From Naegleria gruberi (lineage: Eukaryota): DNA of 64,000 bases. Of the stretch, positions 1 through 60,944 are shown piece by piece (position 1 is the stretch's first letter; every line of letters starts with the position of its first letter). Location: the NCBI GenBank assembly GCA_000004985.1, contig GG738922.1. One strand, written 5' to 3'. Under the pieces are notes generated by a model. That model was given only the letters and a program-made list of their open reading frames with translations, had not been told where the DNA came from and ran no database searches. Made by a program: the position numbers and the translations under genes.

Positions 1-346
1 TCATCTTCTTGATGCTATTACTGTTTAAAATATTGTCACGTTTTTACTTAATTATTGGCACAGTTCAACTCATTAAACGAAAATATAGAAGCATGTGAAG
101 AAACAAGGTCCCAGTACACATTACAGATTGTATTATTTGATATATCTAGAAGTTTTAACTGAAATATAGTTTCCGCAAGTAGATACATTTTTATACCAAA
201 TTTGAATTTAAATAATTTTATTTTCTTGAACCAGGTGGTAACAGGTACGAATCTTGCACAATAAATATGTTAGCTTTCCCAGACTTCTGAACTTGAGTTT
301 ATTAATAGAATTTAATAGATCACAAAAAATAATTATTATAAAAAAA

Positions 347-1090: not shown

Positions 1091-1167
1091 ATTATTTATC
1101 AAAAAAGTAAATTAATCGGAAGAACTTATTAAATTGAATAAATTTTATTAAAATTTAAAATAAAATT

Positions 1168-2412: not shown

Positions 2413-2891
2413 ATTTATTTATTATTATTATTATAATGATGATGATGATGTTTGTTTGAATGTAATGTTGTTATTACTATTAAATATAATACTAGGCTTG
2501 TTATTATTATGTTGATGAAAAAGGCTTGTTGTTATTGTGATGGTGATGATGAAGGTTGGTTCTCGACAAAATTTATTCCAAAAATGCAAAATTTTAATGT
2601 TTTTAAAAAAATTAGCAAAAACATTGTGAAACTAAATGAATGGAATTTAAATTGTTAATTTAAACAAATTGATATTATAATAGTAATTTGATAATGTAAT
2701 GTTAGGATGAAACTATAGTCAACAATATTTTTGACAGTAATAACATGAACAATATATTTAGCCTTCATGTACTTAAAGTTCATGAACAATTTATCCTATC
2801 AATTGAAAAAAAGGATATTAATAATTCACAACATTAAAAAATACATCATCATCATTAACCCATATATTCTCATAATAACAATCACAATAAC

Positions 2892-4541
2892 ATGATGTGC
2901 AACAATTATAATTCAACTTCATCATCATCATCTTGTAAACAAGAACTACAAGAACAAATACAAATACCCAATGATATATGTTATGAAATATTATGTTATT
3001 TAAATTCACAACAAATTATTAAAAGTTGTTTATTAATTTCCAAACAATGGTTAAATGTAATTCTTGAAAGAATTAAAAATTTACAATTTTCATTTTTTAA
3101 AAGAGATGATTCTCCATTTTGGTTTTTAAATAGACAATTATATACTTTTAAATTTAATAACTTTAATAGTTTATTATTTAATAATATATCCTCATTGACT
3201 ATATATGGTAATGAACAATATAATTTATTTTTACCATTATTAAAATATTTTAAAAATTTAAAAATATTAAATGTTAATTGTAATCAATTAAGAGATGAAG
3301 GTACTAAAATTTTAGTTAGTGAAATAGATCAATTAACATGTTTACATTTTTCAAATAATTTTATTACTATAGAAGGAATTAAATATTTAACAAGAATGAA
3401 AAATTTAACATTTTTATCATTAGCATCAAATGCAAATAATTTAACATTAGATTCATTTAAAATATTAAGTGAAAATATGTTAAATTTAAAAATATTAAAT
3501 TTATCTGATAATTATTTATGTCAAGAAGAAGTATTTTACCAAATTAGTAAAATGATAAATATTACTAATTTAGATTTAAGTAGAAATTCTATAAAAGATT
3601 GTGGTATTAAATATATAAGTGAAATGAATGAATTAATATTTTTAAATATAACTAATTGTGAAATTAAAGAAGGTTCAAAATATTTAATCAAATTAAGAAA
3701 ATTAAAAAATTTAATAATTGAACAAAATTGTATTGGAGATGACGGTATTAAATTAATTTCTAACAATTTAAAACAATTAACAAATTTAAATATATATTAT
3801 ACTAATATTACTATAAATGGTGTTAAATATATTTGTAATGAATTAAAAGAATTAAAAGAATTAGATATTAGTAATAATAAAATTGGATTTGAAAGTTTAT
3901 TAGAAATTTCAAAATTAAAAAATTTAACAAGTCTTTCAATTAATTCTATTATTAATAATAATAATAATATTTATAATAATAATAATATTGATTGTAATAA
4001 TAATATTGAAAATATTAAATATATAAGTGAAATGAAACAATTAACATATTTAGATATATCATTTAATGATATAGGTGATGATTATATTAAATTTCTAAAT
4101 AATTTAACAAATTTAACACATCTCTCTATAGCACGTAATAATTTAACACATGAAGGTGTGAAATTTTTAAGTGAAAATATTTTTAAAAATTTAACACATC
4201 TCTCAATTGGATATAATTTAATTGGTATTGAAGGTGTTAAATTAATTACTAATAGTAGTATTGAAAATATGAAATGTTTATATATTAGTAAATCAGGAAT
4301 TGATGATGAAGGTGCTAAATATATTAGTAAATTAACAAATTTAAATAGACTTTTAATTGATGGTAATTATATTACTGAAATTGGTGCTAAATATATTGGT
4401 CAATTGAGTGAATTAACACATCTTAATATTAGTGAAAATTTTATTAAAAATGAAGGAGTTTCTTATTTGAGTAATCTTTGTAAATTAAATACTATTGATA
4501 TTAGAAGAAATGGATTGAGAAAGGAGAAGAAGAATAAATAA
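2892..4541 (+). CDS. F-box-like / leucine-rich-repeat protein (RNI-type LRRs), 549 aa
   Basis: N-terminus IPNDICYEILCYLNSQQIIKSCLLISKQWLNVIL is F-box-like. It is followed by more than 15 LRRs with L..L.L..N.I.D.G motifs typical of ribonuclease-inhibitor-like repeats. ATG at 2892. Confidence 0.8.
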   Translation: MMCNNYNSTSSSSSCKQELQEQIQIPNDICYEILCYLNSQQIIKSCLLISKQWLNVILERIKNLQFSFFKRDDSPFWFLNRQLYTFKFNNFNSLLFNNISSLTIYGNEQYNLFLPLLKYFKNLKILNVNCNQLRDEGTKILVSEIDQLTCLHFSNNFITIEGIKYLTRMKNLTFLSLASNANNLTLDSFKILSENMLNLKILNLSDNYLCQEEVFYQISKMINITNLDLSRNSIKDCGIKYISEMNELIFLNITNCEIKEGSKYLIKLRKLKNLIIEQNCIGDDGIKLISNNLKQLTNLNIYYTNITINGVKYICNELKELKELDISNNKIGFESLLEISKLKNLTSLSINSIINNNNNIYNNNNIDCNNNIENIKYISEMKQLTYLDISFNDIGDDYIKFLNNLTNLTHLSIARNNLTHEGVKFLSENIFKNLTHLSIGYNLIGIEGVKLITNSSIENMKCLYISKSGIDDEGAKYISKLTNLNRLLIDGNYITEIGAKYIGQLSELTHLNISENFIKNEGVSYLSNLCKLNTIDIRRNGLRKEKKNK

Positions 4542-4748
4542 ATAAAATCTTTAGAAAAACCTTAATATTTGTTTAATTGACTCTTATAACCTTAATGTTT
4601 TATAATCTTTGCAAATGAAATTTAAATAATAATAATAAAATTATTGTTTTTTGAAGTATCAAACATTCAATAATTGAAAATGATGAACCTAACCACTAAT
4701 AACAATTAATAATCTGTTAATTCATGTGTGTGAATAAACTAAAAAAAA

Positions 4749-6062
4749 ATGAAAGAAATTCCCTTCACATCTATTGAAGGTATAATAGTAGGACATTGTA
4801 ATGAAGGTAATAGTGGATGTACAGTTGTGTTGAGTGAAAACTCCGAAGGATTTGGATGTGGTGTTGATTGTAGAGGAGGTGCAACTGGTACAAGAGAAAC
4901 TGATTTATTAAAACCTGGAATGTTAGTTGAAAAAATACATGGTGTATGTTTTATGTATATATTTTCTTAATATATTTAATATTTAATTAATATATTTAAT
5001 TTATTAAAAAAGTGTGTAATTTCAGGAGGAAGTGCATTTGGATTAGATGCATCTTCAGGAGTAATGAAATATTTTAGAGAAAAAGGAATTGGATATCATA
5101 CAGATATATTAAATGTTCCAATTGTTTGTCAAGCTGTTTTATATGATTTACAAATGTTAAATAAGAAAGATAATACATCATTATCATTATCATCCAATGA
5201 TAATAATAATAATAATACATCATCAACATCTAATAATCAAAATAATTCAATAATTGATTTACCAAATTATTTTGAATTAGGATATAAAGCATGTAAAAAT
5301 CCAATATCTAATGATATAAATGGAAATATAGGAGCAGGAAATGGATCTACAATTGGTAAATTATTAGGAGCTAAACATTCAATGAAAGGTGGATTAGGAT
5401 GTTATGCAATTCAAGTTGATAATGAATTAAAAATTGGTGCAATGGTTGCTGTTAATTGTTTTGGTGATGTTTATGAAAATGGAAATTTAATTGCTGGATG
5501 TTATAAAATTAATGATGTTGATTCAACATCTGATTCAACAACAACTAATACATCATTATTATCTGATTCAACTATTAGTACAAATAATACTGATGATACA
5601 TCATTTAATTCTAATAATTTTAATAATTCTTCAAATGATAAATTAGTTGAATTTCTTGATAGTGAAAAGATATTAATTAAAGAATATTTACAATCTAAAG
5701 AAGAAGCCAATGCATTTGAATTATCTAAAAGAAAGCATGATATAACAAATACAACTATTGGTATTGTTGTTTGTAATGGAATATTAGATAAATCTCAATT
5801 GAATAGAATTGCAATGATGGCGCATGATGGATATGCACGTTCAATGAAACCATCTCATACTTTATATGATGGTGATACTATTTTTGTAATCTCAACTGGT
5901 ACTATTAATGTTAAACCTCCTACTAATTTAATTGGTACTTTGGCTGCACAAGTTGTTGAAAAGGCAGTTGTTAATGGTGTTAAACATGCTCAATCCATGA
6001 ATGATTTCATTTCTTTTAATGATTTAAATAATATTATTTCTACTAATAATAGTAATAAATAA
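4749..6062 (+). CDS. Peptidase S58 / DmpA (L-aminopeptidase D-Ala-esterase/amidase) family protein, 2 exons: join(4749..4941,5026..6062)
   Basis: Exon 1 IEGIIVGHCNEGNSGCTVVLSE...GVDCRGGATGTRETDLLKPGMLVEKIH plus exon 2 GGSAFGLDASSGVMKYFREKGIGYHTDILNVPIVCQAVLYDL matches the DmpA/S58 consensus. Donor GTGTATGT, acceptor tttcAG, 84-nt intron in phase 1. Asn/Ser/Thr-rich insertions present. Confidence 0.8.
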
Positions 6063-6100
6063 TAAACTCTTAGTTGTTAATAATTTGATTCAATGATTTT

Positions 6101-7147
6101 TTAATCTATTTCAATGATGGTTATATTGTTAAGATGATTATTAGTAGTGTTGTTAATGTTCATCTTTTTAGTAATGTTAGTGTTGATAGTAGTGGTATTG
6201 AGTAGATTAAGAGTGTTATGTTTCAATATAGTTGGTAATGCTACAAGCTCATTGTCATGATGTTGTAATGTGGATTGATTGAGTTTAGAATGAATTGGTT
6301 CTTCCTCAATAACATAATAAGGAATTTCATCTTTGACTATTAGAGGTGTTGGTGATGTATGAGTCATTTCTTCACTGTTAATGTTAGTTGTATCAAAATC
6401 TTCATTATCTTCATCATCTGATTCCGATTGACCAATTAAAAGAAATAATGAATGTGTTGATGGCTTTTCAGATTGTGATATCACAATATTATTAGTAGTA
6501 TCACCATTATTGATAATGACATTAGTAGTGTTAGTAGTATTATTTGTGTTTTGTGAATAATCCAAACTATCTTCACTAGTTGATTCCTGAGTTGTATCAT
6601 TACTCTCTGTAAAGAGTGCACTCAATATTGATGAGGAAAATGATGGTACAATATCACCATCACAACCTAACAAGCCTAATGGTGGTGGAAGTGGTGATGA
6701 AGGTGGTGGTGCTTTCTCTTCTTCTTGACTTGAACCACTAATTAATGCATTATGTGGTGGTAGTGGTGTAGTTATGAATGATTTGGAAGGCTTTAATTTG
6801 TGATGTAAAGTACTATTATTCTTTCGTTTCTTTCTTGGTATTTCAATTAATTCTTCTTCATCATCAGTTTCATAATCCTTATAATTGATTCTTCTTAATC
6901 CCTTTCGTTTCGGATGTTTTCTATTGGATTCGGATTCTAATTCTTCATCTTCTTCCTCATTGGATGAATATTCTTCATCATCATAATCTGAAGAACTACT
7001 ACTATCATCATCAGAAGTGGTGTCAAAATCGTCTTGTCTTATTTGTGGTAATGTATCTTTCCTAACCCAATGATCAGAGCCTTCATTTGATGTTACTACT
7101 GCTACCTTTTTACTTGTTGTCTGACTTCTGGTTACTCTTTGAGACAT
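6101..7147 (-). CDS. Hypothetical acidic Ser/Asp/Glu-rich low-complexity protein, 348 aa
   Basis: Long ORF with ATG at 7147 and Dictyostelium-like codon usage. It has poly-acidic and poly-Ser tracts with basic KR patches suggestive of nuclear localisation. No recognisable domain. Confidence 0.6.
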   Translation of the reverse strand: MSQRVTRSQTTSKKVAVVTSNEGSDHWVRKDTLPQIRQDDFDTTSDDDSSSSSDYDDEEYSSNEEEDEELESESNRKHPKRKGLRRINYKDYETDDEEELIEIPRKKRKNNSTLHHKLKPSKSFITTPLPPHNALISGSSQEEEKAPPPSSPLPPPLGLLGCDGDIVPSFSSSILSALFTESNDTTQESTSEDSLDYSQNTNNTTNTTNVIINNGDTTNNIVISQSEKPSTHSLFLLIGQSESDDEDNEDFDTTNINSEEMTHTSPTPLIVKDEIPYYVIEEEPIHSKLNQSTLQHHDNELVALPTILKHNTLNLLNTTTINTNITKKMNINNTTNNHLNNITIIEID

Positions 7148-7308
7148 TTTATTTGTTAAGGTTTATTGTAGGTAATAAAATACACAGACTTTGTTAGCCT
7201 GTGACTAATTGTAGCCTTGTAAAATCACAGCCTTGATTGAAGGATGAATGTTCTTGTGAATGATGGAAATTATTGCAATCAGTGCCATCCATCAATTCTA
7301 AAAAAAAA

Positions 7309-10300
7309 ATGAGTATTAATAATAGTATTGTTACTACACCCACTAAATCATCAGCATCATCACCAACTGATGGTACATCATTAACACCATCTCCATCATC
7401 ATTATCAACACCTCGGAATAATGTTAGTAGTAGTAGTATTACAACACCATCATCTACAACATCATCAACTTTATCAACTCCATCCACTCCATCTTCATCT
7501 TCTAGAATGACAACAATAGTTTCATCAGCTCCTATTATTAAAAAACTACCAAAACATTTACAAGATACCTTAAAATCTGGAACTAATATATCATCACTCT
7601 CTGATTGTATTAAAGAATTAATAGAAAATGCACTTGATGCACAAGCCACTAATATTGAAATTCAATTACAGGGTAAAGAATGTATCATTATTAAAGATAA
7701 TGGTCATGGTATTCATCAGGATAATTTTGAAACTCTATGTAAACGTTATTATACTCATAAATTTATGAATCATTTTAATACTTTTAATGATAATGATAAA
7801 AATGTAAATAATACCACTGATAATTTAAATAATAATGAATCATCATCTAATAATCATTCTCATAATAATAATGAAAATAATAATTATTACTATGGATATA
7901 AAGGAGAAGCATTAAATAGTATATGTAATTTAAGTAAACAAGTACATATTAAAACTAAATATGGAGATGAATCTGAATTAGGAACATATTTAATATATGA
8001 TACAAGAGGTGAAATTGTATCTAAAACATTAATTAGAATGAATAGAGGTACAATAATAACAATTCAAGATTTATTTTCAACCATTCCAGTTAGAAAGAAA
8101 TGTTTTGTTAATCAATTTGATTCACAATTTACAGATTTAAAAGAAATGTTAAAACAATTAACTTTAATACATTTTAATATTAGATTTACTATTAAGGAAG
8201 GTGAAAAAATATCATTTATTAAAAATGGAAATATTAAAAATTTAAAACAATCATTAAATACTATATTTGGAATACCTAATTTATATGATCATTTATATTT
8301 ATATTCAAATATAATATTAAATGAAGAAAATGAAAATAATATATTTTTAAATAATTTAAATTTATTTAATAATGAATTTTTATTACAAATTCATGTTCCA
8401 AATTATTCAAGTATTGTAAAATCAAATCAAATTGATTCAAATGAAAAGGAAATTAACAAATTTTTTACCACAACTAAACCTTTTATTTATGTTAATAATA
8501 GAATGATTACTAAATATGAAGAAATTCAAAAAACAATGAAAAATATTTTTTCAAATTTTNNNNNNNNNNNNNNNNNNNNNNNNNNNNNNNNNNNNNNNNN
8601 NNNNNNNNNNNNNNNNNNNNNNNNNNNNNNNNNNNNNNNNNNNNNNNNNNNNNNNNNNNNNNNNNNNNNNNNNNNNNNNNNNNNNNNNNNNNNNNNNNNN
8701 NNNNNNNNNNNNNNNNNNNNNNNNNNNNNNNNNNNNNNNNNNNNNNNNNNNNNNNNNNNNNNNNNNNNNNNNNNNNNNNNNNNNNNNNNNNNNNNNNNNN
8801 NNNNNNNNNNNNNNNNNNNNNNNNNNNNNNNNNNNNNNNNNNNNNNNNNNNNNNNNNNNNNNNNNNNNNNNNNNTAATGATTATTCTGATCAAGTTATTG
8901 ATAATCAATTAAATAATACAAGTTTAATTTCTAATAATAATAATACAAGTAAATTAATTTCTAATAATACAAGTTTAATTTCTAATAATAGTAGTAGTAG
9001 TATTATTACACAATCATCACCTTCTTCTTCTATTATGAATAATAGCAATAATAATAATGAAAGTGGTAATCATTATACATCTAATTATAGAACACCATCA
9101 CCTCAATCTAAAAGCCTTATTACCACTCTTCATAATAGTAATCATTCTAATAATACAACAACACCATCACCACCTATATTTAATAAGAGAAGTGTTATTG
9201 TAAATAATAGTGGTGGTAGTAGTGGAAGTGGTAGTGGTGGTTATAGATCTACTATTAGTGGAGGTAGTAATAGTACATCTAATTATAGTACTAATAATAA
9301 TAATAATAATAGTAGTAGAGGTAGACATATAGAATTAGATGATTCATTATTGGATGCTATGGATGATTTAATAGGTGTACCTATTTTACCAAAAAATAAT
9401 AATAATAATTCAACAATAGATTCATCTATTAATAATAATATTACTAATAATAATGGAAATAAATCTAATAATAATAATATGAATTTAAGTGATGATGAAG
9501 ATACAATAATTAAAACAGGTTTAAAAAATACATCTAACAAACAAATATTAATAACTAATAATAATAATAGCAATGATAATAATAGTACTATTAAAACAAT
9601 AGTACAACCCATTGATATAAATAAATATAAAAGTACAACACCTAATAATTCTAAAAAAAGAAAAACAATTCAAACTAAATTAACATTAGATTCATCTCAA
9701 CAACAACAACAACAATATAAATATAAAAATATAGAAATTGAAAATATTAATGAAGAATTAATATTTAAAAAACGTAAAATTTATTCAAATAATGAAAAGA
9801 AAAATTTAAAATTTGATAATGAAAATTATAAAATTAGTAAAAATGATATATTTACAAATATAGAAATTATAGGAGAATTAGAAAATAAAATAGGAATAAT
9901 ATATCATTTAAAATATTTTAAAATATATTATATTAATTTAAATATAATTAAAAGTGATTGTATTTTTAATAATTTAATGAATACATATTCATTTAAAGAT
10001 TCAATTATACCTTTACAACAACCAATTAATTTATTATTATGTAAAAATGAATTATCAAATAAGAATTTAAAATCAATTTGTGTTAAACCTGAATATCAAA
10101 ATATTTTTGAAATGAATGGTTTTAAAATTGAATTTGAAAAACAACCTTTACCAAATGAACCTACTAGAAAGAAAATTACAAAATTAAATTTAATTGGAAT
10201 TATTAATAATAATTCTTTTGGAACAAGAGAACATTATAATTATGGTTTACAAGATTTTATTGAAATTTTACAAAAAATTGAAACTTTTGAAAAGGATTTA

Positions 10301-10663
10301 TTAGAAAATGAAATTATTAAGAATATTTTAAAGGAAAAGAAGGCAACTAAATCTGAATTAATTTCGCAAGCATCAATTCAATTTAGACCCAATACAATGA
10401 TTGAATATTTTAAGAATACTGCTAAACATACTTCTTCATCTTTAGGTACAGATAGAAAATCAATTCATGAAATTTTAATGGACTTGAAAACAACTTGCTT
10501 CTTGAAATTACATCAATTTATGAGTAGACATACAGATGAAAATTTTGATGAAATTATTAATGATATTACTGGTTATTTTCATCCAATGGATTTGGGAGGT
10601 ACTAGTAGTGATACTAGTGCTGATAATAATGGAGATGTACCAAATATTGAAGAAATGATTTAA
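7309..10663 (+). CDS. MutL-family DNA mismatch repair protein (MLH/PMS-like), interrupted by scaffold gap
   Basis: The N-terminal GHKL ATPase motifs IKELIENALDAQATNIEIQL and IIKDNGHGI match MutL. ORF 7273..8877 starts at TTG; the first in-frame ATG is at 7309. The reading frame stays open on both sides of the N-run and continues to 10663. Extensive Asn-rich insertions. Confidence 0.75.
8570..8874. other. Assembly gap (305 N)
   Basis: Run of N characters inside the MutL-like CDS. Confidence 0.99.
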
Positions 10664-13600
10664 TCTTTAATAAATTGAATAGTCTTTTGCTTTGGAACTT
10701 GTGGTGATGGATTACTTGGTCTGAGTACTGGTAATGGATTGAATTTGATAATTTCCTGTGATGAAGAGCTTATCGATGAGGAAGGAGCTGAAAATTTGAG
10801 AATTGATTTTCTTATCATGTTCGTATTATTGGATTGTGCAGCTATTGTTGTTGATTGAGATGGAGAGAATAATTTTGGATTAAAATCATCTGCAATTAAA
10901 TCCTTTCTTGTTGATTCATTCATATCAGCCCATTTCAATGAATTATTCTGATTATCTCTTTTCAATAATTTTAATTTGGAATTATAACTTGGTGAACTAA
11001 CTTCTGTTGGGAATTCAAAATCGTCAAATTTACGTTTTCCTAATTGATTTAATTGATTCATTAATGTATTATTTCTAGTTGTTGGTGTATTAATTAATGA
11101 TTGATTTGAAATTGAACTAATATTTGACTTGGTTGGTGTTATAGAACTTTCACTTATTGAACTCAATGAATTTAATAATGGAACAGGTGAAATAAAAGAT
11201 GAATCTAAATTTGATGATGTTTTCATTGGTGTTTGTTCTCTCTTTGAAATTCTACTCTTAGGTGAAAGTAATAAAGATGAGGATGATAAATCATTTGATT
11301 GTTTTTGTGTTCTAGTTGTTGTTGAACTATTAATCATCATTCTATTTGAAACTAATTTAGAAATACTTGGTGATAAAATAAAACTATCTTCCTTTCTAGT
11401 ATTACGAGTATTAAATGATGGTTTTGAAAGAGGTGATGGTGAAAACATTGAAAATAAACCCAATTCTTTTGTTGATGGAATTGTTTTAGGTGTTCCAATT
11501 AAATCTAATTTTGAAATATCAAATTCAGAATTTCTTCTAGTAATTACTTTTGGTGAATTAGTACTACTAATATCATTCATATTATTATTATTTGTAATAA
11601 TAGTATTATTATTATCAATAGTTGATTTCTTTTGAATCCAATCATTTTGAATTTGTTCAATTGCTAAATCTTGTTGATTTAAAATTTCAATTTGATTCTT
11701 AATTTCATCATCTGTAATTTTATCATCAATATCAAGTAAAATCTTTTGAGTTTCCTCTTTTTGTTTTTTAATTAAAGGTTCAAAATCTAAAACTCTACAT
11801 GTAGAAGTATCAAATAAATCTTTTTCATCCACTTGTTCATCATCTTGTACATCTTCCACTTGTTTTAATTCTTCATTGAAATATTTTAATAAATTATTAT
11901 TACTTTCAAACTCATTTGATGATGCTATATTACTAATACTACTAATATCTGTTAATATATTATTATTATTATTATCAATATTATTATTATTAGCAGTATT
12001 ATTATTAGAATTATTATTAGTATTATTCAAATCATTCTTATGATTCATACTATTATCAATATTTACAACCATTGATGACTCTATAATACTATCATCACCC
12101 AATTCTTCTAATACATCTTCTGTTGTTGTTGTAATTGCTTGTGCTACTTCGCCTGTACTAATATCATCAATTACATCAAGAATATTATCCTCCTCTTCTT
12201 CTTCTTTCTCTGATTGTTTCGTTTGACTATTATCACTTAAAGATGATGAATCTGATAATGGTGATTCAGATATGTTTGCTTCAATATCTTCATTTGTTGC
12301 ACTTGTTATTTCCTTAATGATTTCATCAATTTCATCTGTTTGATCATTCTCTTCTTCAGAGAATTCTTCAATAATCTTTGGTTCTTGTTCTTCAATAATA
12401 TTTTCAAGTTCATTGTCTTCCTCTGAAGATTCCTCAATAACCTTTGGTTCCTGTTCTACAATGATATCATCATCACTTTCTTGTTGTTCCGATTTAGATT
12501 CAACAATTTGTTCAGTAGTTGTCTCTGGAGTTTCATCTTCACTATCAACCATTTCAGGAGTTTCATCAGTTTCATTTTCAATAACAACTTGCTCTTCTGC
12601 TACTTGTTCTTCATTATCAACAACTTGCCCTTCAACTACTTGTTCTTCAGTTGTAGAGTGAGCTATTACTTCTTCTTCTACTACGACCGATGGAGGCGAT
12701 AATATTGGAATTTCTTTATCCACTTCATTATTATTATCATTAACAATATTAGATGATGATTCAATTGATTCTTCGTCTTTTTCAATTGTTGTTGTTGTAG
12801 GTGATGTTACAGTAGTATTAATATTACTATCAATATTAATAATTTTACTTTCTTTAGCAAATTCTTCTTCTATTGTTGGTATTGTTGATTCACTTTCATA
12901 TTCTTCTCTGTTTCTCTTTAATGAATTTTCAGATTCAATAATGGTAGTATTATTATTATTATTAGATTCATTATCATCATCAAATTTAATTTCATTCAAT
13001 TCATCTTCATTTTTCACTATATCAATATTATTATTTACTACTACTTGTTCATTCAACTCCTCTATAATCACATGATCAGTATTTTCTACTTGTTCTTCTT
13101 GTTTCTGAATTAATTCTTGTTTTAATAAATTTAAATTTAATTTATAATCCTTTTCAATTAAATATTTTCTCATCATTGATTGTAAAGTTAAAATTGTATT
13201 TAAATCATTTTTTAAATTTACTTGTTCCATTTTACTTTTTAATAAAGATTGAATTATTAAAGTTGATTCTTTACAATCATTTAAATATTTTCTATTCGAA
13301 TGTCCTTCAATTAAATTTTCTAAATTATTTAATAATTTTAATTTTTCATTCTTTTCTAAATTAGTAAATAATCTAATATGATGTCCATTAAATATTGATT
13401 GTAATGTTGTTATACTTTCATTTAATTGTTTTCTGTTATGTAAAACTAATTGATTTCTATATAAGGATTGAATATTTTCTGAAAATTCTAATTTTGAATT
13501 AAATTCCTTTTTAATTAAATAATTTCTAATTAATGATTGTAAAATAATAATATTATTATTAATATTATTAAAATTAGTATTTTCTATTAAATTTCTAAAT

Positions 13601-14558
13601 TTAGATTGTAATATTATTACATTGAATTTTTCATCGTCTAAATTTTTACGTTCCAAATAATTTTTACATAAATTTTGTAATGAAATTAAATGTTCAACTT
13701 GTTTATCCATTTCATGAATTGAATTATATTGTCTAATTATAGATTGAATACTTGTTATATTAATTTCCTTAGAATTTTCCAAACTTGTTGATTCCGATAC
13801 TGATTCTACCATATTACTAGCATTATTATTTATAGTAGTTTCAATTGTAGTTGGTGTTGATGATATTTCTGTTGTATTAATTAATTCTTCATCATTTGAA
13901 GGCTTTGAATTTTCATTTTCAATTTTTTCTTCCGAATTTTCATTACTTGAATCATTAATTAATTGTTCATCGCTTGAAGGCTTTGAAATTTCCTTATTTT
14001 CTTCTTGATTAGATGATTCCTGTTGTTGATTATTTTCATCTTGTTCTTGCTTAGACGATGATTCATCTTGTTGTTTGTTGATGGTTCTAATTCTGTTTGT
14101 TCTTCATGTTCAGAACTATTTTCATCTTCCTGTTTAGATGAAGAAGAGGAAGCCTTTGGTTGTTCTACTTTTTTTCTTCTCCTTGATGATTGAAGCCTAG
14201 ATCTAACAGGTGTTTTAATAATCTTTTCTTCTTCCTCTGGTTCGGTATTTGCAGTCAAGTCTTCATTTACACTTTTAGATTGATTATTCTTCGTTTTATC
14301 AATTTTCTTACGTTTTTGACGTTCCTTTACTGGTGTTTTTAAAATGTTTGAAATTAATGATGAGGCTGATGATAATGTATTAGAAGAGGAGGCATTTGTT
14401 GTTGTACTATTAGATGTTTCATCATTGGTTGTTGATGTGGTTGAGGAAGAAGAAGTAGCATTTGCCTCGGTATTTGCTGTTGTTGTATTTGATGACCTTG
14501 TATCATCGGAAGGTGATGAAGGAGATAATAATTTTTGTCTTCTAGTTTGTACTGGCAT
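10660..14558 (-). CDS. IQ-motif-containing, acidic low-complexity protein; two ORFs (14558..13959 and 13812..10660) probably one gene disrupted by a frameshift
   Basis: ORF 10660..13812 carries at least five IQ-like calmodulin-binding motifs (ILQSKFRNLIE, LQSLIRNYLIKKEF, LQSMMRKYLIEKDY) followed by long acidic/Ser-rich tracts. The frame that contains Met-13812 stays open upstream to about 14100 with the same acidic repeat style (SKPSSDEQLINDSSNENSEEKIENE...). It overlaps the 3' out-of-frame tail of ORF 13959..14558. Confidence 0.5.
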
Positions 14559-14930: not shown

Positions 14931-14943
14931 ATAAAAAAGTAGA
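14931..14943 (-). terminator. Pol III oligo-T terminator downstream of the tRNA
   Basis: TTTTTT run 1-8 nt after the discriminator base on the tRNA strand. Confidence 0.5.
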
Positions 14944-15032
14944 AGGCGACTGAGGGAATTGAACCCTCGACCCTCAGTTATCTCAGCATTACTGCCTACA
15001 AGACTGATGCACTGCCACTGTGCTAAGCCGCC
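14944..15032 (-). tRNA. tRNA gene, anticodon UGU (Thr) with a putative 17-nt intron 3' of position 37
   Basis: The reverse complement folds as GGCGGCU/AGUCGCC acceptor stem (one G-U), GCAC/GUGC D-stem, UCAGU/ACUGA anticodon stem with loop CUUGUA[intron GGCAGUAAUGCUGAGAU]A, variable loop GGGUC, and T-arm GAGGG-UUCAAUU-CCCUC. A T6 run (TCTACTTTTTTAT) follows immediately and serves as a Pol III terminator. Confidence 0.6.
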
Positions 15033-15154
15033 TTACGATTATGATTTTTAAAAATACAATACTGTAATATTCCTGTGCGTTAAGTAATGTGTCACCAAAA
15101 TAATAACACAATTAATATTAATATTATTATGGCGCCAAAAAGAAATAAAAATAC

Positions 15155-52354: not shown

Positions 52355-55300
52355 TTACTTTTTCTTTCTCTTCTTCTTGTCGTTATGTTTCTTCTTGTTT
52401 GATGCTGATGATGAGGTAGTAGTAGTTGATGGACGTATTGGAAAAGTATATGGTATCTGACCATTGATTTTCCACATGAGAGGAATATAGGGCATTATTT
52501 GGGTTTCTGTTATTGCTCCATGCTTCTCATAGTCTGAGTGAAGATCATAGTAGAATTTCTGTGGTAGCCCTCTCGGAATGTGGTCAGGAGTTGATTTCCT
52601 GTATTCAACAAGCAAATGAACCAAGGACTCATTAGGCATCTTTTGAATTAAAAATCTGTAGTCCTTCAAGTTGAACTTTTGGAAGAGGGTGATCAATTTA
52701 GTCACTTCTGTTAGAATTCCATAAACCATTTGTACAGATAATTGAGGTTGGAAACCAATATTGGACCCTCCAAGCACAGCCAGTGAGGATAAGTTTGAGG
52801 TTAACATATTGGACCAATATCTTTCATTTTCTTCTTCTTCATCTTCATTGCTTGGAAGAATGTCTTTGATTCTTTTGAATTCAGTTCTGCAAACTCTGTT
52901 CTGGGCTACATCGACACGAGTGAGTACAGCTGCAGAAGCTGGCCTCATGAAAACAACAGACCACCACTTGGCAAGTTCACTCTGTGTAGATAACTCTAAA
53001 CCTTTTTCAGTTTGATATTCCAATTTGGTCATTAGCTTGATAGCAGTTGGCCTATCCGTTTTTACATCCATATTAGCTCCATCGAGTTTGGTTCTGATCA
53101 ACAATTTCAAATTTGCAAGTGTAAACAAATTGTAAGTTATTGGCTCTCCATCTCTGTGTAAGAGTTCATATTGTGAATAACTATCATTCTCATTGTATTC
53201 AGCCTTAGAAATGAGTGGATTGCAAGGTATGTGTATGAGTGGTTCCTTCAATGCAAGTGTCTTAATTGTGTATTTGTAATAAATTTGATTGTTATCTCTG
53301 AGAGTCCAGGCCTTTTTAATCATGGGCTTGTCAATAAATACTGTGAACTGTGATTCATCTGATTTTGGCTTGGCAATGACAGGTAAGCACCACTCCTCAG
53401 AAAATGTTGGGCCTAGTGTGTTGATCATTGCAGTGAGAGCACTGCTAGCACAAACGAAATCAATATCTGTGCATTGAGGAAGGATGGATTGTAAAATGAT
53501 AGGATCCTCGCTTACATTTGGAAGAATACGATGATGATAAAGGTTGGCTGTTGGTGTACTCTTCTTTTTTGATTCCTCAAATGGATTATATACATTTTCT
53601 GTAGGTGGAACAATTAATTCTTGTGTTTGATCTTCTAAATTATTTGGATTTAAAGATGGATCATTAACTTGGTAAACATTTGTTCCTATTGGGAATTTAG
53701 GAAGCTTTACAGGCTTGGAAGGTGTTTGTGTCTCAGATTCCTCATTGTTATCTTCATCAGCTGAGGCAACATCTTCATCTTGTGCCTGGTATAATATTTG
53801 ATTTCTGTGGAATTGGAAATATTTATCTGTGGTCTGATAAATGAGTTTTGAAAATCGAAGAATAGGGTCAGCAAATGAATTTCCAAGGGCTTGCTTGGTT
53901 TGTTGGAGTTGAGCAATACCAAGTGTTTGCCAAAGTTCAAAATGTCTTGGTAGGGCTCCAGTATTTTCCAAACTGGTTGCATTTGTGGGTAAAATTCTTT
54001 CAAATTTTCTCTTCTTTTTCATCTTGTCCACTTGATCAGAAATATATGGATCAATAAAAAAGTATCTAGTTTGTCTATTATTCCAAGCATCGTCAAATAG
54101 AGCTTTTCTAAAGGCAGCTTGCTCTTCCTCAACAACTTTCTTTAATTTGAAAAAGTATGCAGATGGAGGTGAAACCTGTTTTGAAAGGGCATTCTGATTT
54201 TGGAATAATTTAAATTGTTTGAGTCCCTTCATGTAAATATCTTGGTCATTCTCATCCAAACTTGATACTTTGCCTAGGTGAAAGAGTGGATTCTTTTCAG
54301 GTTGAAGAGGTTTCTTCTTTTGCTTCTTCTCTTTCTTGTTCTTTTGTGATTTGGATGAATTAGAATTTGGCTGTTGTGATTGGGGTTGTTGAGCAGGAGT
54401 ATAGCTATCAATAATAGGATTAGATTCTTCGGCACTATTTTCTTTCTTCTTTTCCTTTTTCTTTCGTTTCCTTTTCTTTGAATTACTTTCTTCCACTTTC
54501 TCTGCAACAATAGGTTGAATAGTTTGCTGAGTTTTTAGATTGAAAACAAGAGGTGCTGGAGGAGGTTTCGTCCTTGCAAGAAGTGGAATAAGTGGATTAT
54601 ACTCAATAATTTGATTCATATCTTTTTCTTCTACTGGTTTAGTTTCAGTAATAATTGTTTGAAATACCGGTTGGCTTGAGATAACCTCCTTATTTGGAGT
54701 ATTCTGTTCTGTAACTATTTTCAAGGGAACAGATTCTCTTTCAGTTGGCTCTAATGGTGGAATAATTCTAGTTTGCTCTGAAAGAGTTTCAATTCTATTC
54801 TCCTGATTATTAGATACTATTGGTGTTAGTTCATCTTGAACTGAATCAAGCCCTCCGATTTCATAATTGTCATCTATCATGTATAAATTCTCTGGTTCCT
54901 CCTCACTATCGGAATCTTGTGATGAAAAATCAACTCTTTCTTGTTGTTTAATATTAGTAATATCACTCCTTTCCTCATCAGTTATTAAAGTATGAACAAG
55001 TTCTTGTTCCTGAACGATTTCCTTCTTCTTTAATAAATCTTTAGAATATTCGAAAAGCCTTTCCAATTGTTGCTTTCTATCTGGTTTTAAAGAAGGCTCT
55101 ATTGAGAAATGTTTCAACAATTTACTTTCCATGTTTGGTGTTACATCTTCAATATAGTTATGCTCCTGACTATAATTCATCCAATGAAATAAATATTTAG
55201 AATTTGATGCACTCGAAGCTGTTGAATAATTTCTTGTTAATCTTTTAATTGGTTCCACATTCGGTAAATCAGACAATGATTTTAAATAATCAAAGTCAAC

Positions 55301-55525
55301 CTCATAATTTTCAACATTTTCCAATTTTTCCTCGTTACTATTAGAATTAAATCCGTTAATTGTTCTTCTAATACTTTCGCTTGGTATTTCCAAATTTGCT
55401 GGCAAAGGAGAGAGTACTCTTCTTCCTTCATTCATTAGTTTAAATTCACTAGAAATTTCCTCTAAATTAATTATCATCTCTCCATTATCTTCCGTTCTAT
55501 GATTTGCTTCATCCTGACTCATCAT
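52355..55525 (-). CDS. Large hypothetical protein, 1056 aa (basic KKRK-rich middle, conserved-looking C-terminal half)
   Basis: Uninterrupted ORF with ATG at 55525. Contains a polybasic NLS-like stretch. No confidently recognised domain. Confidence 0.7.
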   Translation of the reverse strand: MMSQDEANHRTEDNGEMIINLEEISSEFKLMNEGRRVLSPLPANLEIPSESIRRTINGFNSNSNEEKLENVENYEVDFDYLKSLSDLPNVEPIKRLTRNYSTASSASNSKYLFHWMNYSQEHNYIEDVTPNMESKLLKHFSIEPSLKPDRKQQLERLFEYSKDLLKKKEIVQEQELVHTLITDEERSDITNIKQQERVDFSSQDSDSEEEPENLYMIDDNYEIGGLDSVQDELTPIVSNNQENRIETLSEQTRIIPPLEPTERESVPLKIVTEQNTPNKEVISSQPVFQTIITETKPVEEKDMNQIIEYNPLIPLLARTKPPPAPLVFNLKTQQTIQPIVAEKVEESNSKKRKRKKKEKKKENSAEESNPIIDSYTPAQQPQSQQPNSNSSKSQKNKKEKKQKKKPLQPEKNPLFHLGKVSSLDENDQDIYMKGLKQFKLFQNQNALSKQVSPPSAYFFKLKKVVEEEQAAFRKALFDDAWNNRQTRYFFIDPYISDQVDKMKKKRKFERILPTNATSLENTGALPRHFELWQTLGIAQLQQTKQALGNSFADPILRFSKLIYQTTDKYFQFHRNQILYQAQDEDVASADEDNNEESETQTPSKPVKLPKFPIGTNVYQVNDPSLNPNNLEDQTQELIVPPTENVYNPFEESKKKSTPTANLYHHRILPNVSEDPIILQSILPQCTDIDFVCASSALTAMINTLGPTFSEEWCLPVIAKPKSDESQFTVFIDKPMIKKAWTLRDNNQIYYKYTIKTLALKEPLIHIPCNPLISKAEYNENDSYSQYELLHRDGEPITYNLFTLANLKLLIRTKLDGANMDVKTDRPTAIKLMTKLEYQTEKGLELSTQSELAKWWSVVFMRPASAAVLTRVDVAQNRVCRTEFKRIKDILPSNEDEEEENERYWSNMLTSNLSSLAVLGGSNIGFQPQLSVQMVYGILTEVTKLITLFQKFNLKDYRFLIQKMPNESLVHLLVEYRKSTPDHIPRGLPQKFYYDLHSDYEKHGAITETQIMPYIPLMWKINGQIPYTFPIRPSTTTTSSSASNKKKHNDKKKRKKK

Positions 55526-56487
55526 GGAGCATGTCTATTGTTTTATTTTTTTGTGAAGTTTTTTGCTTCATCTTCAATTTTAGGATTTGCTTTTTGGAGA
55601 GTTGTTTGATGATTCCAAACAAAAATCACTAGTAATAGTAAATAGATGATGTTGTGAAAAGTTTGGTAGCTTCAGTATGTTAAATAATTGAAACCACTCG
55701 AAGAACTCGAAGAATCATTAAAGTACATCCGTACTTGATGTTGAAATGTTTTTTTCATTTTCTTCTTTATTCCATTAGACCTTTTACAATCACAACCTTA
55801 CCTGTCAAATCTGATGATTTCAGTAACTCTTCATTGAAATTAGACCTTTAAAATACATTCTAGCAAACTTAATGCCAACACTTTCATTTATGAATTTGGC
55901 TTGTTCTATAGAGTCATTAATGGATTTTCAAAATCTAGTCTGCTTCGTTTGATCATTTTTTTGACAGTTTTCTTCGTCATACAATTATTAAGAAATAATC
56001 AAAGTGGTTGCCCTTCTTATAGTTTCCTGTGATTTCTCGCTCTGTTAAATAATAAAAACCACTTTTGAAAAACTCTCAAATTGACTAACACACATTTCCT
56101 CTCAATGCTAAATGCACAACAATAACAGAGGTTAACTAAAAAACACAGAAAATAAGGAAAAAAAAGACTACAGCACCACAGGTTCCCAAGTTGTCTCCAA
56201 CCTCAGTACTGATGTGGCTCGACGATGCTTAACTTCTCAAATCGGACGGGATGAGGTGCATTCATCGTGATATGGCCGTAGCCATTTATTTCCTTAATGC
56301 GATGAATAAAAAGAAGTTTGTGACACAAAACAAGAAAACATGAACTTATCAAGCTTGTTACAGCTACACAATACTCTCGGTTTGTCAAATTCTTCAAAAA
56401 CTGGCTTGTCCTGAGCTGAATTGCAAAGATTGGGAGCAGTAAATTGAAAAATTAATTTGGTGTTTGGTTGAAGAGGAATGAAATAAT

Positions 56488-57954
56488 TTATTCATCATAG
56501 TCTTCATCTTCTTCATCTTCATCGTTGGAGTAAACTTCATCTTCGTCATCTTCATCAAAGGTTGGAATCTGCTCGGGAGTTGTGTTATTTTGTAAAGATT
56601 TCAAACCCTCCAAATCATGCAAGTAAATGGAAAGCAGTTCATCATTAGCCTCAATACATGAGTTGTGGTTTGGATTACTCGAGTTGATTGTTTTCACAGA
56701 AGGCATTGTAAAGCATTGAGATTGTGAAAATGGACAAATGTACTTCTTGTCAATGAATTCTTCATACTTGTTTTCCTTATTCTTGACAGCTCTAGATTCG
56801 TCATCATCTTCATCGTTTCTGTTAGAGTTCATTAGGGGTGAGCGAATTTGTACTGTTCCAGCTTCCTTCTTCTTGTTAAATAAGGTGTATTCATTGTAAG
56901 GACCTGGAGCATTTAGGAAAATGATAGTGTCTCTTTTTGAAAGAGAATCAGACCACATGGTCAAGTACTTTCTTGTCTTGAGTTTAAAGTGTTCTTCTTG
57001 CATTCTACGAATTTGACTACCAACGGACTTGGCTCTCTTACTTTGATCTTTGGAAACTTGTCTTTTTCCTTGCTTTTTTCTAGTGACATACTTGTGGAAA
57101 GTTTTGTGTACAGTGGCGACCATTGGCTCTGCATTCTTTTGCTTTCTTCCATTTTTCTGGAACACACAACCACTGAAAGAACCACCATGACAGAAAATAA
57201 CACAAAATCCCTTCTCCAAAAAGTGATTCTTCAAATCTCTCAAAAAGAATTGGAAATCGTGATGATAATTCAAAGACATGATCATCTTGATACGATCTGT
57301 TGAATTTTCAAACACTTCTCTCAGCTCAGTGTCCATTCTCTGGTTGATTGAATGATTTTTACAATCTTCATAAATATACTTGAAAATTTCATAATAAATC
57401 TTGAAACATGAAATAAATAGTGGAATTTGTGTATCAACTTGCAAAACAATTTTTGTCTGATTTACGCCTGAAATTGAATGAAACTTGCAAGGAATCTTCA
57501 AAAGTAATGATGATGTTGAACAGAGTGGATTCTTACCATAGAAGGAATTTTCAACACCTTCCTTCATCAATTCATATAATTGATGATGAGCAGATACTAA
57601 TTCATACCATTGCTTGTTCACCAGAATTAATGAAAGTAATTCTTCAGATATTTTCTTTTCGGAAGCCTTTTTCTTCTTCTTTTTCTTTTTTACTTCCACT
57701 TCATTATCATCATAAATTGAAAAATCCATCAAATATAATAATATATGATTAATCACTCTCCGATTATGAGACAAAATTAAACCCTTTTCTTTACGTTCTT
57801 CCATAAACATGAATGTTTTTTGTGAGGGAGATTGATCAAAATCCTCATCATCATCGTCCTTGTATTTGATCCTCTCTCGCATCAGAGTAAATTGTTTACG
57901 GTCATAGGTTTTATTCACTCGATCGACAAAATTTGATAAATGTTCAAAACTCAT
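56488..57954 (-). CDS. VLRF1-domain protein (Vms1/ANKZF1-like peptidyl-tRNA hydrolase of ribosome quality control) with F-box-like N-terminus and acidic tail
   Basis: VIFCHGGSFSGCVFQKNG...VHKTFHKYVTRKKQGKRQVSKD...GSQIRRMQEE aligns to the Vms1/ANKZF1 catalytic core (HAGrFAGaiF ... HKTFHRYTVRAKRGGSQ ... LRRYNE). The N-terminal LLYLMDF...ISEELLSLILVNKQWYELV is F-box-like. ATG at 57954 in aaaaaaaATG context. Confidence 0.65.
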   Translation of the reverse strand: MSFEHLSNFVDRVNKTYDRKQFTLMRERIKYKDDDDEDFDQSPSQKTFMFMEERKEKGLILSHNRRVINHILLYLMDFSIYDDNEVEVKKKKKKKKASEKKISEELLSLILVNKQWYELVSAHHQLYELMKEGVENSFYGKNPLCSTSSLLLKIPCKFHSISGVNQTKIVLQVDTQIPLFISCFKIYYEIFKYIYEDCKNHSINQRMDTELREVFENSTDRIKMIMSLNYHHDFQFFLRDLKNHFLEKGFCVIFCHGGSFSGCVFQKNGRKQKNAEPMVATVHKTFHKYVTRKKQGKRQVSKDQSKRAKSVGSQIRRMQEEHFKLKTRKYLTMWSDSLSKRDTIIFLNAPGPYNEYTLFNKKKEAGTVQIRSPLMNSNRNDEDDDESRAVKNKENKYEEFIDKKYICPFSQSQCFTMPSVKTINSSNPNHNSCIEANDELLSIYLHDLEGLKSLQNNTTPEQIPTFDEDDEDEVYSNDEDEEDEDYDE

Positions 57955-58410: not shown

Positions 58411-60944
58411 ATGAAGTTATCCTCAAGATATTCTCTTGCCATTGCCTTGGCAACGATTCTTGCCGTCTGTTTGACATGTTCTTGGTCACTTCGTGCAGTT
58501 CACGCCTCTCGTCAACCTATTCGTTACGAAGCTTTCCAAGAATTATTCGAACCTACTTCTGATGCTTGGTCAAACGAAGCATTTATGGTAGAAATGGCTT
58601 CACATCCATCCTTTGATGCTCATTTAGATAACGTTCTTGCTGATTTACAAGATTTTGAATTTGATATCGAGTCAGATGATGCCATTCTCGAATACATGTC
58701 AACTTTATCTGATTCACAAGCTAGAGCTGAATGGAGAAGATTTAGAAGAGCTTTTAGAAGAGTTGGAAGAGCTTTCAGAAAGGTAGCAAGAGGTGTTGTA
58801 AAGGTTGTTAAAAAGTATGGAGCTATTATTGCACCAATTGCTTTGACAATTGCTACTGGTGGTCTTGGTGGTAAGTTTATTATTGTTATTGTTATTGGAG
58901 GATTGATTCAAATTTTGAATATTGAATTTTAAAATAACCTTCCTTCTCATTGGATTGTTAATAATTCTGTCAATTACTATTTTTGGAATATAGCTCCTTC
59001 TTTGGCTGGAAGTTTGGGAAGTATTGGAAGTACTGTTGCAAAGGGAGCTGCCATGTTGGCTAAAGTTTCTTCTATTGCTTCAAAGGCTAACATGGTCATT
59101 GGTGGACTCAATGCTGTTACAGGTTTGTTATCTTTAATTTTCTTTTTATGGTAACAATTGAAACATTTTGAAAATTAGGTGGTAAATCTAAACTCCTCAA
59201 CAAGCTTTCCAATTTTTCCAATAAGGTTACCAATGTTTTGGGTAAGGGTGGTATGATCTTGAATGCAGGTGGTTCTATTGCTAAGGGACTTTCTGGATTG
59301 AGTAATTTGAGTGTTAAGGGAATTGCTGCTCAACTCAAACCAGGAAATTTATTCAAGGGAGCTACATTGTTGGAGAAGGGTACAAACTTTTTGAACAAGG
59401 CCTCTGGATTTATTAAGAAGGGACAAGAAATTACCTCCTCATTGAATAACTTGACAGGTAAGTATTTTAATTGATTATTTCTTATGTAACGTTGATGATG
59501 TGTTATAGGTGGTAAAATCAAGGCACTTAATAAGATTTCTTCAGGTTTAGACAAGGCCCAAAAGATTGCCGGAATTGGATCTGGAGCTTTGAATGGATTG
59601 GGTAAAGGATTGGATTCTCTCAAGAATTTGAAGAATTTTAAGAATATTGATATGAAGAAGTTGTTAACTTCTGAAAATATCAAGAAGGGTTTAGGTAAAC
59701 TTGATTCCACTATTGGAAAGACTAAGGATATCCTTTCCAGTGTTAATGAAGTCACTGGTGGAAAGAGCAAAAAATTGAACAAGATTATTAATGCTCTCGA
59801 TAAGACTCAAAATATTGTTTCTGTTGGTTCAAACGCAGTTGACAGAATTAAAGGTATTAAGAATTCAATTGCTGATTTGAAGAATTTCCAAAGCTCAAAG
59901 ATTAAGGATCTCTTCACCAATGAAGGAATTCAAAAGGCATTGGGTAAGCTCGATAATTCCTTGGGTAAAGGAAAAGATTTCCTCCAACAAGTCAATGCAA
60001 TTAATGGTGGAAAGAGTAAGACTTTAAATAAGTTAATTCAAAAATTAGAAAAGGGTCAACAAGCAGTTGCTATTGGAAGTACTGCTGCTAAAAGATATGA
60101 AGGAATCAAATCATCAATTGAGAAATTATCCAACATGAAGTCAGGTGATTTGAAGAATCTCTTGAATTTTGAAAATGTTCAAACTGGTTTGGGAAAGGCC
60201 AAGAATGCTATGGCTAACGCTGAAGATTTTGTTTCTCAACTCAATACATTCACTAATGGAAGAAGTAAGACTTTGGTTTCCCTTGTTGAAAAGTTAAAGA
60301 AGGGTCAAAAAGTCACATCTGTCACATCTAAAATTTTAGATGGAGCCAAGGGTATTAAGGGAAGTCTTGAACAATTGAAGAATCTCAAGAAGGAAGACAT
60401 GCAAAAGGTATTAGATGCTGAACATCTTCAAGGAGTTTTGAACAGAGTTGCTGGTGCCTTCTCAAAGGGAGAAAATATTGTCTCTGAATTGAACGAAATT
60501 TCCAATGGAAAGAATAAGAATCTTGCCAAGTTATTACAATCCTTGAGAAAGGGTCAAATGATTGCCAATACAGCCTCATCTGGTGTTGGTACTTATAAGA
60601 GCGCTAAGAATTCAATTGAAGAAATGAAGAAACTCAAAGGAAAGAATTTGGAAGAAATCTTAAAATCAGACGAATTGAATGAAGTTATTGATTCATGGAG
60701 AGGAACCATTAAACAAGGAAAGGAATTTACTTCTCAATTTAAGGAATTGAAGAATGAATTAAAGAAGAAAGAAACTCCAATTGAAGATGAACCAGCTCCT
60801 GTAGATGATGCTCAAGGAGAACCATCCAATGAAGAACCAGTTGATAGTGCACAAGGAGAACCAGATCAATCATCACCAGTTGAAGAACCAGTTGATAACA
60901 ATGAAGAACCAGCTGATTTTGATCCATCTACTGCTATGGGATAA
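58411..60944 (+). CDS. Secreted Arg/Lys/Gly-rich tandem-repeat protein (about 767 aa), 4 exons: join(58411..58870,58994..59122,59179..59457,59509..60944)
   Basis: Signal peptide MKLSSRYSLAIALATILAVCLTCSWS; acidic pro-region; cationic amphipathic RRFRRAFRRVGRAFRKVARGVVKVVKKYG; Gly/Ala-rich hydrophobic glycine-zipper stretch. Then six repeats of about 84-93 aa, each starting GGKSK/GRSK/GKNK...LNKLI...KGQ..V..GS.A..R.KGIK.SI..LKN, and an acidic Pro/Glu tail. Three introns (GTAAGT/GTTTGT..AG) are all in phase 1, at the Thr-Gly junction that precedes the Lys-rich repeats. Confidence 0.7.

Follow-up and report, generated by a model that had tools for sequence, protein, structure and literature searches.

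The window analysed here is a stretch of 64,000 nucleotides from contig GG738922.1 of Naegleria gruberi (assembly GCA_000004985.1), and its minus strand carries a gene for a protein of the Vms1/ANKZF1 family, in which a VLRF1 release-factor domain follows an F-box-like N-terminus. Vms1 and ANKZF1 carry out release in ribosome-associated quality control, and the way in which this is tied to ubiquitylation varies by lineage. The gene and the parts of its product are listed below, where ORF stands for open reading frame, pLDDT for the predicted local distance difference test score of an AlphaFold model, and P with a number for an individual ortholog or relative.

56488..57954, minus strand: complete single-exon coding sequence, 488 residues plus stop codon, F-box-like/VLRF1 protein of the Vms1/ANKZF1 family (ORF list, colinear orthologs)
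57865..57954, minus strand: residues 1-30, conserved N-terminal helix (MxFExLSxFVDxVNK...RER), kept across heterolobosean orthologs; helix predicted at 4-30 with modest pLDDT
57718..57780, minus strand: residues 59-79, LILSHNRRVINHILLYLMDFS, first half of the F-box-like segment, standing for LPxE and helix 1 (hhalign and MAFFT alignment with reference F-boxes; helix predicted at 65-75)
57646..57717, minus strand: residues 80-103, Naegleria-specific disordered insert of 24 residues between F-box helices 1 and 2 (pLDDT below 50 for 80-101)
57667..57690, minus strand: K89-K96, poly-Lys run within that insert, codons AAAAAGAAAAAGAAGAAGAAAAAG
57562..57645, minus strand: residues 104-131, ISEELLSLILVNKQWYELVSAHHQLYEL, second half of the F-box-like segment, standing for helices 2-3 with a V-[CN]-K-x-W signature (sub-threshold Pfam and PDB F-box matches; helices predicted at 104-110 and 114-131)
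57205..57540, minus strand: residues 139-250, beta/alpha region upstream of the Pfam core (strands at 140-184 and helices, modelled with high confidence)
56866..57204, minus strand: residues 251-363, VLRF1 catalytic core, RNase H-fold, eRF1-like (Pfam PF18826 and Vms1 PDB matches)
57058..57069, minus strand: G296-K-R-Q299, catalytic GxxQ loop, G-G-S-Q295 in Vms1 (residue-by-residue alignment with Vms1)
56752..56865, minus strand: residues 364-401, Naegleria/Willaertia-specific insert of 38 residues within the VLRF1 domain, mostly disordered (gap in Acrasis, P0006, P0008 and P0009; pLDDT below 50 for 363-401)
56584..56751, minus strand: residues 402-457, C-terminal strand-helix part of VLRF1, CPF..CFTMP...NSSNPNH...ELLSIYL (aligns with the PF/T..P...L domain end of relatives; pLDDT about 80-90)
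56491..56580, minus strand: residues 459-488, acidic disordered tail, Asp or Glu at 18 of 30 positions (composition; pLDDT below 50; Naegleria-type orthologs only)

The ORF opens at a TTG at 57999 and its stop codon ends at 56488; the first ATG, at 57954, gives 488 residues, and the frame is free of stop codons and has no intron. When 5.8 billion proteins were searched, a 99% identical copy was found on a metagenome contig (ENA metagenome ERZ929261), together with orthologs from Naegleria lovaniensis, N. fowleri, Willaertia magna and a metagenome sequence (P0002) that are 46-59% identical over 91-99% of the length. More distant orthologs, Acrasis kona among them, were found by the same search. 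The orthologs share the start Met (MFENLS...) and are colinear over the full length in alignment A1, and nine or more sequences of separate assemblies are colinear from Met1 to the C-terminal domain. Both the coordinates and the reading as a single exon are therefore right. The gene boundaries given in a preliminary description of this locus, which was made from the sequence alone, hold up, and the orthologs of N. lovaniensis, N. fowleri, Willaertia and Acrasis are colinear with the protein. The helix of residues 1-30 has no Pfam match.

The VLRF1 assignment is secure. The Pfam model bVLRF1 (PF18826) covers residues 251-363 with 96 bits (cutoff 27, E 2.6e-27), the match ending at position 105 of the 145 in the model, and each of the ten family members is a match. 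All three motifs quoted in the preliminary description are in place, namely HGGSFSGCVF (256-265), HKTFHKYVTRKKQGKRQ (283-299) and GSQIRRMQEE (312-321). Among PDB sequences, phmmer found yeast Vms1 as the sole match (5whg, 6r84, 6r86; E about 3e-9). In that alignment HKTFHKYVTRKKQGKRQ lies opposite HKTFHRYTTRRKQGGSQ of Vms1 and Q299 falls on the catalytic Q295. Thus, Q299 is the equivalent of the catalytic Gln, as had been proposed for the Gln of GKRQ. GSQIRRMQEE lies opposite the Vms1 helix GSALRRYNES; GSQ at 312-314 was considered as the catalytic motif and rejected, as it aligns with the GSA of Vms1 in the helix after the catalytic loop.

Conservation was examined among relatives collected by an exhaustive HMMER search, which gave 1429 at E ≤ 0.001, and invariance was judged on the best 150 of them. 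Fifteen positions are nearly invariant, and all are kept in the Naegleria protein: G257, G258, H283, Y289, R292, K294, G296, Q299, S310, G312, R316, R317, E320, P350 and N354. R316 and R317, in GSQIRR, are the arginines that open the helix after the catalytic loop, a described feature of VLRF-1 (PMC6514570).

The AlphaFold model of the full-length protein, built on a ten-sequence alignment, has a mean pLDDT of 66 and reaches 80-93 across much of the core. Its top three Foldseek matches in the PDB are all Vms1 (6r84_R, 6r87_R and 5whg), with E from 2e-5 to 9e-5 and a probability of 1.00, followed by aRF1/eRF1 and other RNase H-fold proteins. The alignment with yeast Vms1 spans about 285 columns. 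Residues 139-250, upstream of the Pfam core, correspond to the N-terminal extension common to bacterial and eukaryotic VLRF-1, which is described in PMC6514570; a FELP motif, in a strand of this extension, is found in P0006-P0009 and in P0147. Disorder in the model affects the catalytic loop (290-297), the internal insert (363-401) and the tail, and the low pLDDT of residues 290-297 is consistent with a flexible catalytic loop.

The accessory modules of Vms1 are lacking, as the preliminary description had stated for ankyrin repeats and VIM. Ankyrin repeats, zinc fingers and treble clefs have no Pfam match in the protein even at E ≤ 10, and no VIM (RX5AAX2R), C2H2 or CxxC pattern is found in its 488 residues. 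The VIM link to Cdc48, by which fungal and animal proteins reach the ubiquitin system, is thereby absent from the Naegleria protein. The Rei1-like C2H2 finger, three ankyrin repeats, treble clef and VIM of the crown group are later additions and do not define the family (PMC6514570). When 117 relatives were scanned (alignment A5), ankyrin repeats and the Vms1 treble clef were found in only about ten, and an F-box with an E-value better than 0.001 in two. The same scan gave an AZUL domain in two VLRF1 relatives, leucine-rich repeats in one and a RanBP-type zinc ribbon in one. In the E3A ubiquitin ligase, AZUL forms the N-terminus and binds zinc. VLRF1 has thus acquired modules of the ubiquitin system on more than one occasion.

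We now turn to the N-terminal segment, residues 59-131, in which a Lys-rich loop of 24 residues parts LILSHNRRVINHILLYLMDFS from ISEELLSLILVNKQWYELV in Naegleria sequences. The insert (80-103) occurs in four Naegleria-type orthologs and is missing from Willaertia, Acrasis, P0008 and P0009; the other Naegleria-type orthologs have Lys-rich runs in the corresponding position, and Willaertia and Acrasis do not. K89-K96 is the sole run of seven or more Lys among the 30 ORFs of at least 200 residues in the window, and the possibility that it is plain AT-rich background was rejected on this ground. The poly-Lys insert and the acidic tail, both noted in the preliminary description, are thus real features of the protein.

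Because the loop splits the segment, direct Pfam scoring of an F-box is weak. When the insert is removed, F-box-like (E 2.5e-4, 21.2 bits, cutoff 24.3) and F-box (E 0.0099, 16.2 bits, cutoff 20.5) rank first and second among 24,736 Pfam families. Sub-threshold Pfam F-box matches are seen in four of ten family members. Distant heterolobosean sequences still have the hydrophobic pattern and V-[CN]-K-x-W signature. Trp116 shows no variation in alignment A2, of N-termini with the insert removed, and hardly any in the full-length alignment A1, in which MAFFT misplaces the insert of P0006.

Profile comparisons point the same way. A profile of nine heterolobosean N-termini gave five PDB matches at E ≤ 10, and all five are F-box proteins matched at their F-box (FBXO42, TIR1, FBXW21 and Skp2 twice), with individual E-values of only 0.15-1.1. 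With hhalign, the family profile was aligned to ten reference F-boxes, each confirmed by Pfam (E 1e-9 to 1e-22); the result was a probability of 87%, P 3.9e-6 and a score of 30.8 over 36 columns. Column shuffles (n = 300) scored 8.5 on average with a standard deviation of 7.5, one of the 300 exceeding the observed score, and the reversed alignment scored 9.2. The one shuffle outlier, at 134.5, is an 11-column alignment with negative similarity and was dismissed as an hhalign artefact. The unedited alignment with inserts gave P 1.1e-4. The four members that naturally lack the insert gave, on their own, P 5.4e-4 and a score of 21.4, which none of 150 shuffles reached (mean 8.4, standard deviation 2.1).

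Some relatives carry F-boxes above the Pfam gathering score. P0147 (F-box, 31.3 bits) and P0127 (F-box-like, 34.1 bits) have them ahead of a FELP-type extension and VLRF1, and the precomputed Pfam annotation of P0127 agrees. F-boxes below the threshold lie at the equivalent position in P0028, P0131, P0034 and P0105, and V-C-K-x-W-type motifs occur close to the N-terminus in several more relatives. A hidden Markov model of the heterolobosean N-termini, run on the N-termini of other relatives, gave weak matches (E 0.003 to 1) at consistent positions. In the full-length AlphaFold model, helices at 65-75, 104-110 and 114-131 surround the disordered insert with pLDDT of about 57-77.

Residues 59-131 are, on this evidence, most probably a diverged F-box interrupted by the 24-residue poly-Lys loop. 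We hold homology to the F-box to be quite probable, and the chances that the segment binds Skp1 to be about evenly balanced.

That Naegleria and some ciliates have an F-box joined to eukaryotic VLRF-1 was reported by Burroughs & Aravind (2019, Int J Mol Sci 20:1981, PMC6514570, section 2.2, Fig. 3H), so the architecture is already known in Naegleria. Theirs is the same one, with an ancestral bVLRF-1-type core, an N-terminal extension and an F-box ahead of it in a heterolobosean, and the account consists of one sentence and a cartoon. The preliminary description had called the architecture unusual, which is right relative to yeast and human Vms1, although it had already been published. Small points are added here. 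The F-box scores below threshold and has lost Leu-Pro, the poly-Lys loop is conserved in Naegleria, the catalytic loop reads GKRQ, and VLRF1 has a lineage-specific insert. In addition, the same layout extends to Willaertia, Acrasis and many environmental eukaryote relatives (metagenomic or SRA-derived), some with canonical F-boxes. No experiment on the F-box-VLRF1 architecture was found in the literature searched.

Among known systems, Vms1 is the best match of the Naegleria protein in both sequence and fold. Yeast Vms1 and human ANKZF1 (5whg, 6r84, 6r86, 6r87) share with it VLRF1, the Gln of GxxQ, the HKTFH.Y..R.KQG motif, the GS..RR helix and the N-terminal extension. The Naegleria protein differs from them in lacking the Rei1-like C2H2 finger, ankyrin repeats, treble clef, coiled coil and VIM, and in having the F-box-like N-terminus, an Arg before the catalytic Gln and the 38-residue insert in VLRF1. 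With bVLRF-1 of Bacteroidetes, the seed family of PF18826 after which the matching Pfam model is named, it shares the core, the N-terminal extension and the lack of crown-eukaryote accessory domains. bVLRF-1 is a stand-alone protein (PMC6514570), whereas the Naegleria protein has about 135 more N-terminal residues, including the F-box-like segment, and the acidic tail.

With canonical F-boxes (Skp2, beta-TrCP, Fbw7, Cdc4, TIR1, FBXO42) the segment shares the helix-1 pattern ..IL.yL, LL.L in helix 2 and V-C/N-K-x-W-y-x-L. It differs from them in lacking Leu-Pro, in having helices 1 and 2 set apart by 24 inserted residues and in scoring under the Pfam gathering cutoffs. Downstream of it lies an enzyme domain rather than a WD40, leucine-rich repeat or Kelch substrate receptor.

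The protein is a heterolobosean VLRF-1 of the Vms1/ANKZF1 type, and in the reading that we consider likely its N-terminus is a diverged F-box that would tether it to Skp1-Cul1 and so couple release to ubiquitylation. By analogy with the family (PMC7026593), VLRF1 would dock on 60S subunits that still hold peptidyl-tRNA once a stalled ribosome has been split. The loop of Gln299 would then reach the peptidyl-transferase centre, and the nascent chain would be freed either through ester-bond hydrolysis or through a cut at the 3′-CCA of the tRNA. Which chemistry Vms1 and ANKZF1 use is debated, between ester hydrolysis and endonucleolytic removal of the tRNA 3′-CCA that leaves a cyclic phosphate (PMC7026593). 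The term 'peptidyl-tRNA hydrolase' of the preliminary description covers one of these two published activities only, and peptidyl-tRNA release by the Naegleria protein is itself inferred from the family. The F-box N-terminus would bind Skp1 and tether the release factor to a Skp1-Cul1 ligase, a putative recruitment to the Skp1-Cul1-F-box (SCF) complex. Release would thus be coupled directly to ubiquitylation, instead of through VIM-recruited Cdc48 as in fungi and animals.

Several observations weigh against this reading. On the enzyme side, the published VLRF-1 catalytic motif is GxuQ, where u is a tiny residue before Gln (PMC6514570), and in the Naegleria protein the Gln is preceded by Arg298. 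The residue at this place among 83 relatives with a readable motif is Arg in 41, Lys in 11 and Ala, Ser or Gly in 26. The rest concern the F-box. The direct Pfam scan of the native sequence gives only 11.9 bits to F-box-like (E 0.2, cutoff 24.3) over residues 104-127, and all single-sequence Pfam F-box scores stay under the gathering cutoff, with the insert in or out. Leu-Pro at the F-box start is replaced by LS in the MAFFT register or HN in the hhalign register; Acrasis-like members have ED or ND there, and the relatives P0127, P0147 and P0028 retain LP. Leu-Pro at this position is a main contact with Skp1. An iterative HMMER search from the ten reference F-boxes over the N-termini of 97 relatives gave four matches and never reached the heterolobosean sequences. 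The isolated N-terminal model (81 residues) is poor, with pLDDT 65, a predicted template modelling score (pTM) of 0.37 and helices 2 and 3 merged, and Foldseek found nothing for it in the PDB. Isolated F-boxes are often unfolded without Skp1, and the poor model is uninformative rather than negative. Structure prediction, a check proposed in the preliminary description, bears out the VLRF1 domain, for which Vms1 leads the Foldseek matches; for the N-terminus the full-length model gives three helices and the isolated model merges two of them. The F-box-like N-terminus fails in the direct Pfam scan and stands by the insert-removed Pfam scores, profile-profile and PDB matches, relatives and literature.

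The F-box points are also what favours the strongest alternative, in which the N-terminal segment is a helical module peculiar to the lineage, or else a decayed F-box, and does not bind Skp1, and the protein is a stand-alone release factor like bVLRF-1. Sub-threshold Pfam scores, loss of Leu-Pro, a domain split by 24 residues, the missing HMMER bridge to true F-boxes and the empty Foldseek search all speak for such a module. A precedent is the alpha-helical N-domain of kinetoplastid VLRF-1, which is not an F-box (PMC6514570). A module of this kind, comparable to that domain or to the leucine-rich N-terminus of yeast Vms1, might bind ribosomes through the poly-Lys loop on rRNA or act in autoinhibition. 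On the other hand, the hydrophobic pattern and signature have been kept across distant heterolobosean sequences, the PDB profile matches are exclusively F-boxes, the hhalign score is well over its shuffles, and relatives have bona fide F-boxes at the equivalent position. Even the insert has a counterpart, as beta-TrCP-type F-boxes also accept insertions after LP in the MAFFT alignment. We therefore judge this alternative unlikely, and prefer the diverged F-box that tethers Skp1-Cul1.

In another alternative the F-box is functional but directed at the protein itself. Skp1-Cul1 would bring about auto-ubiquitylation and fast turnover, which would keep a potentially toxic peptidyl-tRNA-cleaving enzyme scarce, and the nascent chain would not be the target. 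Many F-box proteins are unstable through autoubiquitylation. The Naegleria protein has, VLRF1 aside, no substrate-binding domain recognisable by Pfam, and its Lys-rich loop and acidic tail are disordered, which counts in favour of self-turnover. However, the architecture is kept across very distant protists, which fits a role in the pathway equally well, and we regard self-turnover as improbable.

Finally, ORF tools carry a general risk on a eukaryotic genome of taking two adjacent genes or exons for one, and the Arg in place of a tiny residue could mark an inactive pseudo-enzyme, but both are effectively excluded because the uninterrupted ORF is colinear in those nine or more sequences of separate assemblies, which rules out a fused gene model, and the core is intact, with every nearly invariant residue kept and GxRQ or GxKQ the majority state (52 of the 83 closest relatives with a readable motif).

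Returning to the diverged F-box that would tether Skp1-Cul1, a further step can be pictured, which we offer as a tentative and rather doubtful extension. F-box-VLRF1 would be an SCF substrate receptor that recognises the obstructed 60S subunit by its release-factor domain, so that one complex both ubiquitylates and releases the chain. If true, ribosome-associated quality control independent of Listerin and of Cdc48-VIM would exist in Heterolobosea, some ciliates and other protists. The F-box on the release factor suggests that early-branching protists have a direct link to SCF where fungi and animals have the Cdc48-binding VIM, and such a link, if true, would be relevant to the evolutionary assembly of the pathway in eukaryotes. 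The idea of an SCF link is already in the comparative-genomics literature. The value of the window lies in a clean full-length example, with detail on the divergence of the F-box.

A-rich poly-Lys tracts can stall ribosomes, and it is curious to find one in a gene of ribosome quality control. The run could just as well serve nuclear localisation or the binding of rRNA. We speculate that the conserved tract, encoded by A-rich codons, may make the gene's own translation sensitive to the SCF-based pathway. Something similar was reportedly suggested in the past for Rqc1 of yeast and its polybasic tract.

Downstream of the VLRF1 gene and on the same strand, 204 nucleotides past its stop codon, lies a complete 5S rRNA gene, followed by a T-run. 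On the metagenome contig with the 99% identical copy, a 5S gene is likewise found, 118 nucleotides past the VLRF1 stop, and at the locus of a more distant ortholog (L002) none was found. The other genes and ORFs noted in the window are as follows.

56165..56283, minus strand: 5S rRNA gene, the sole 5S copy within the window (Rfam RF00001, 105 bits, E 2e-23)
52355..55525, minus strand: downstream neighbour, ORF of 1056 residues with a NARG2_C domain (PF10505, E 3e-13) and many Lys/Glu low-complexity stretches
58411..58932, plus strand: ORF of 173 residues adjoining the 451-residue repeat ORF, resembling a signal-peptide protein; its C-terminus is basic and hydrophobic
59589..60944, plus strand: ORF of 451 residues built of repeats of about 95 residues (...GKSKxLNKLIxxLxKGQ...), with no significant Pfam family
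14942..15033, minus strand: the sole tRNA gene called, tRNA-Thr(TGT) by ARAGORN (Rfam tRNA, 58.5 bits), about 90 nucleotides long, with room for an intron or a long variable arm

The window is AT-rich, with 15-38% GC overall. Positions 1..14000 are far more so than the rest, at 15-29% GC (minimum 15.4% at 8001-10000) against 29-38% elsewhere.

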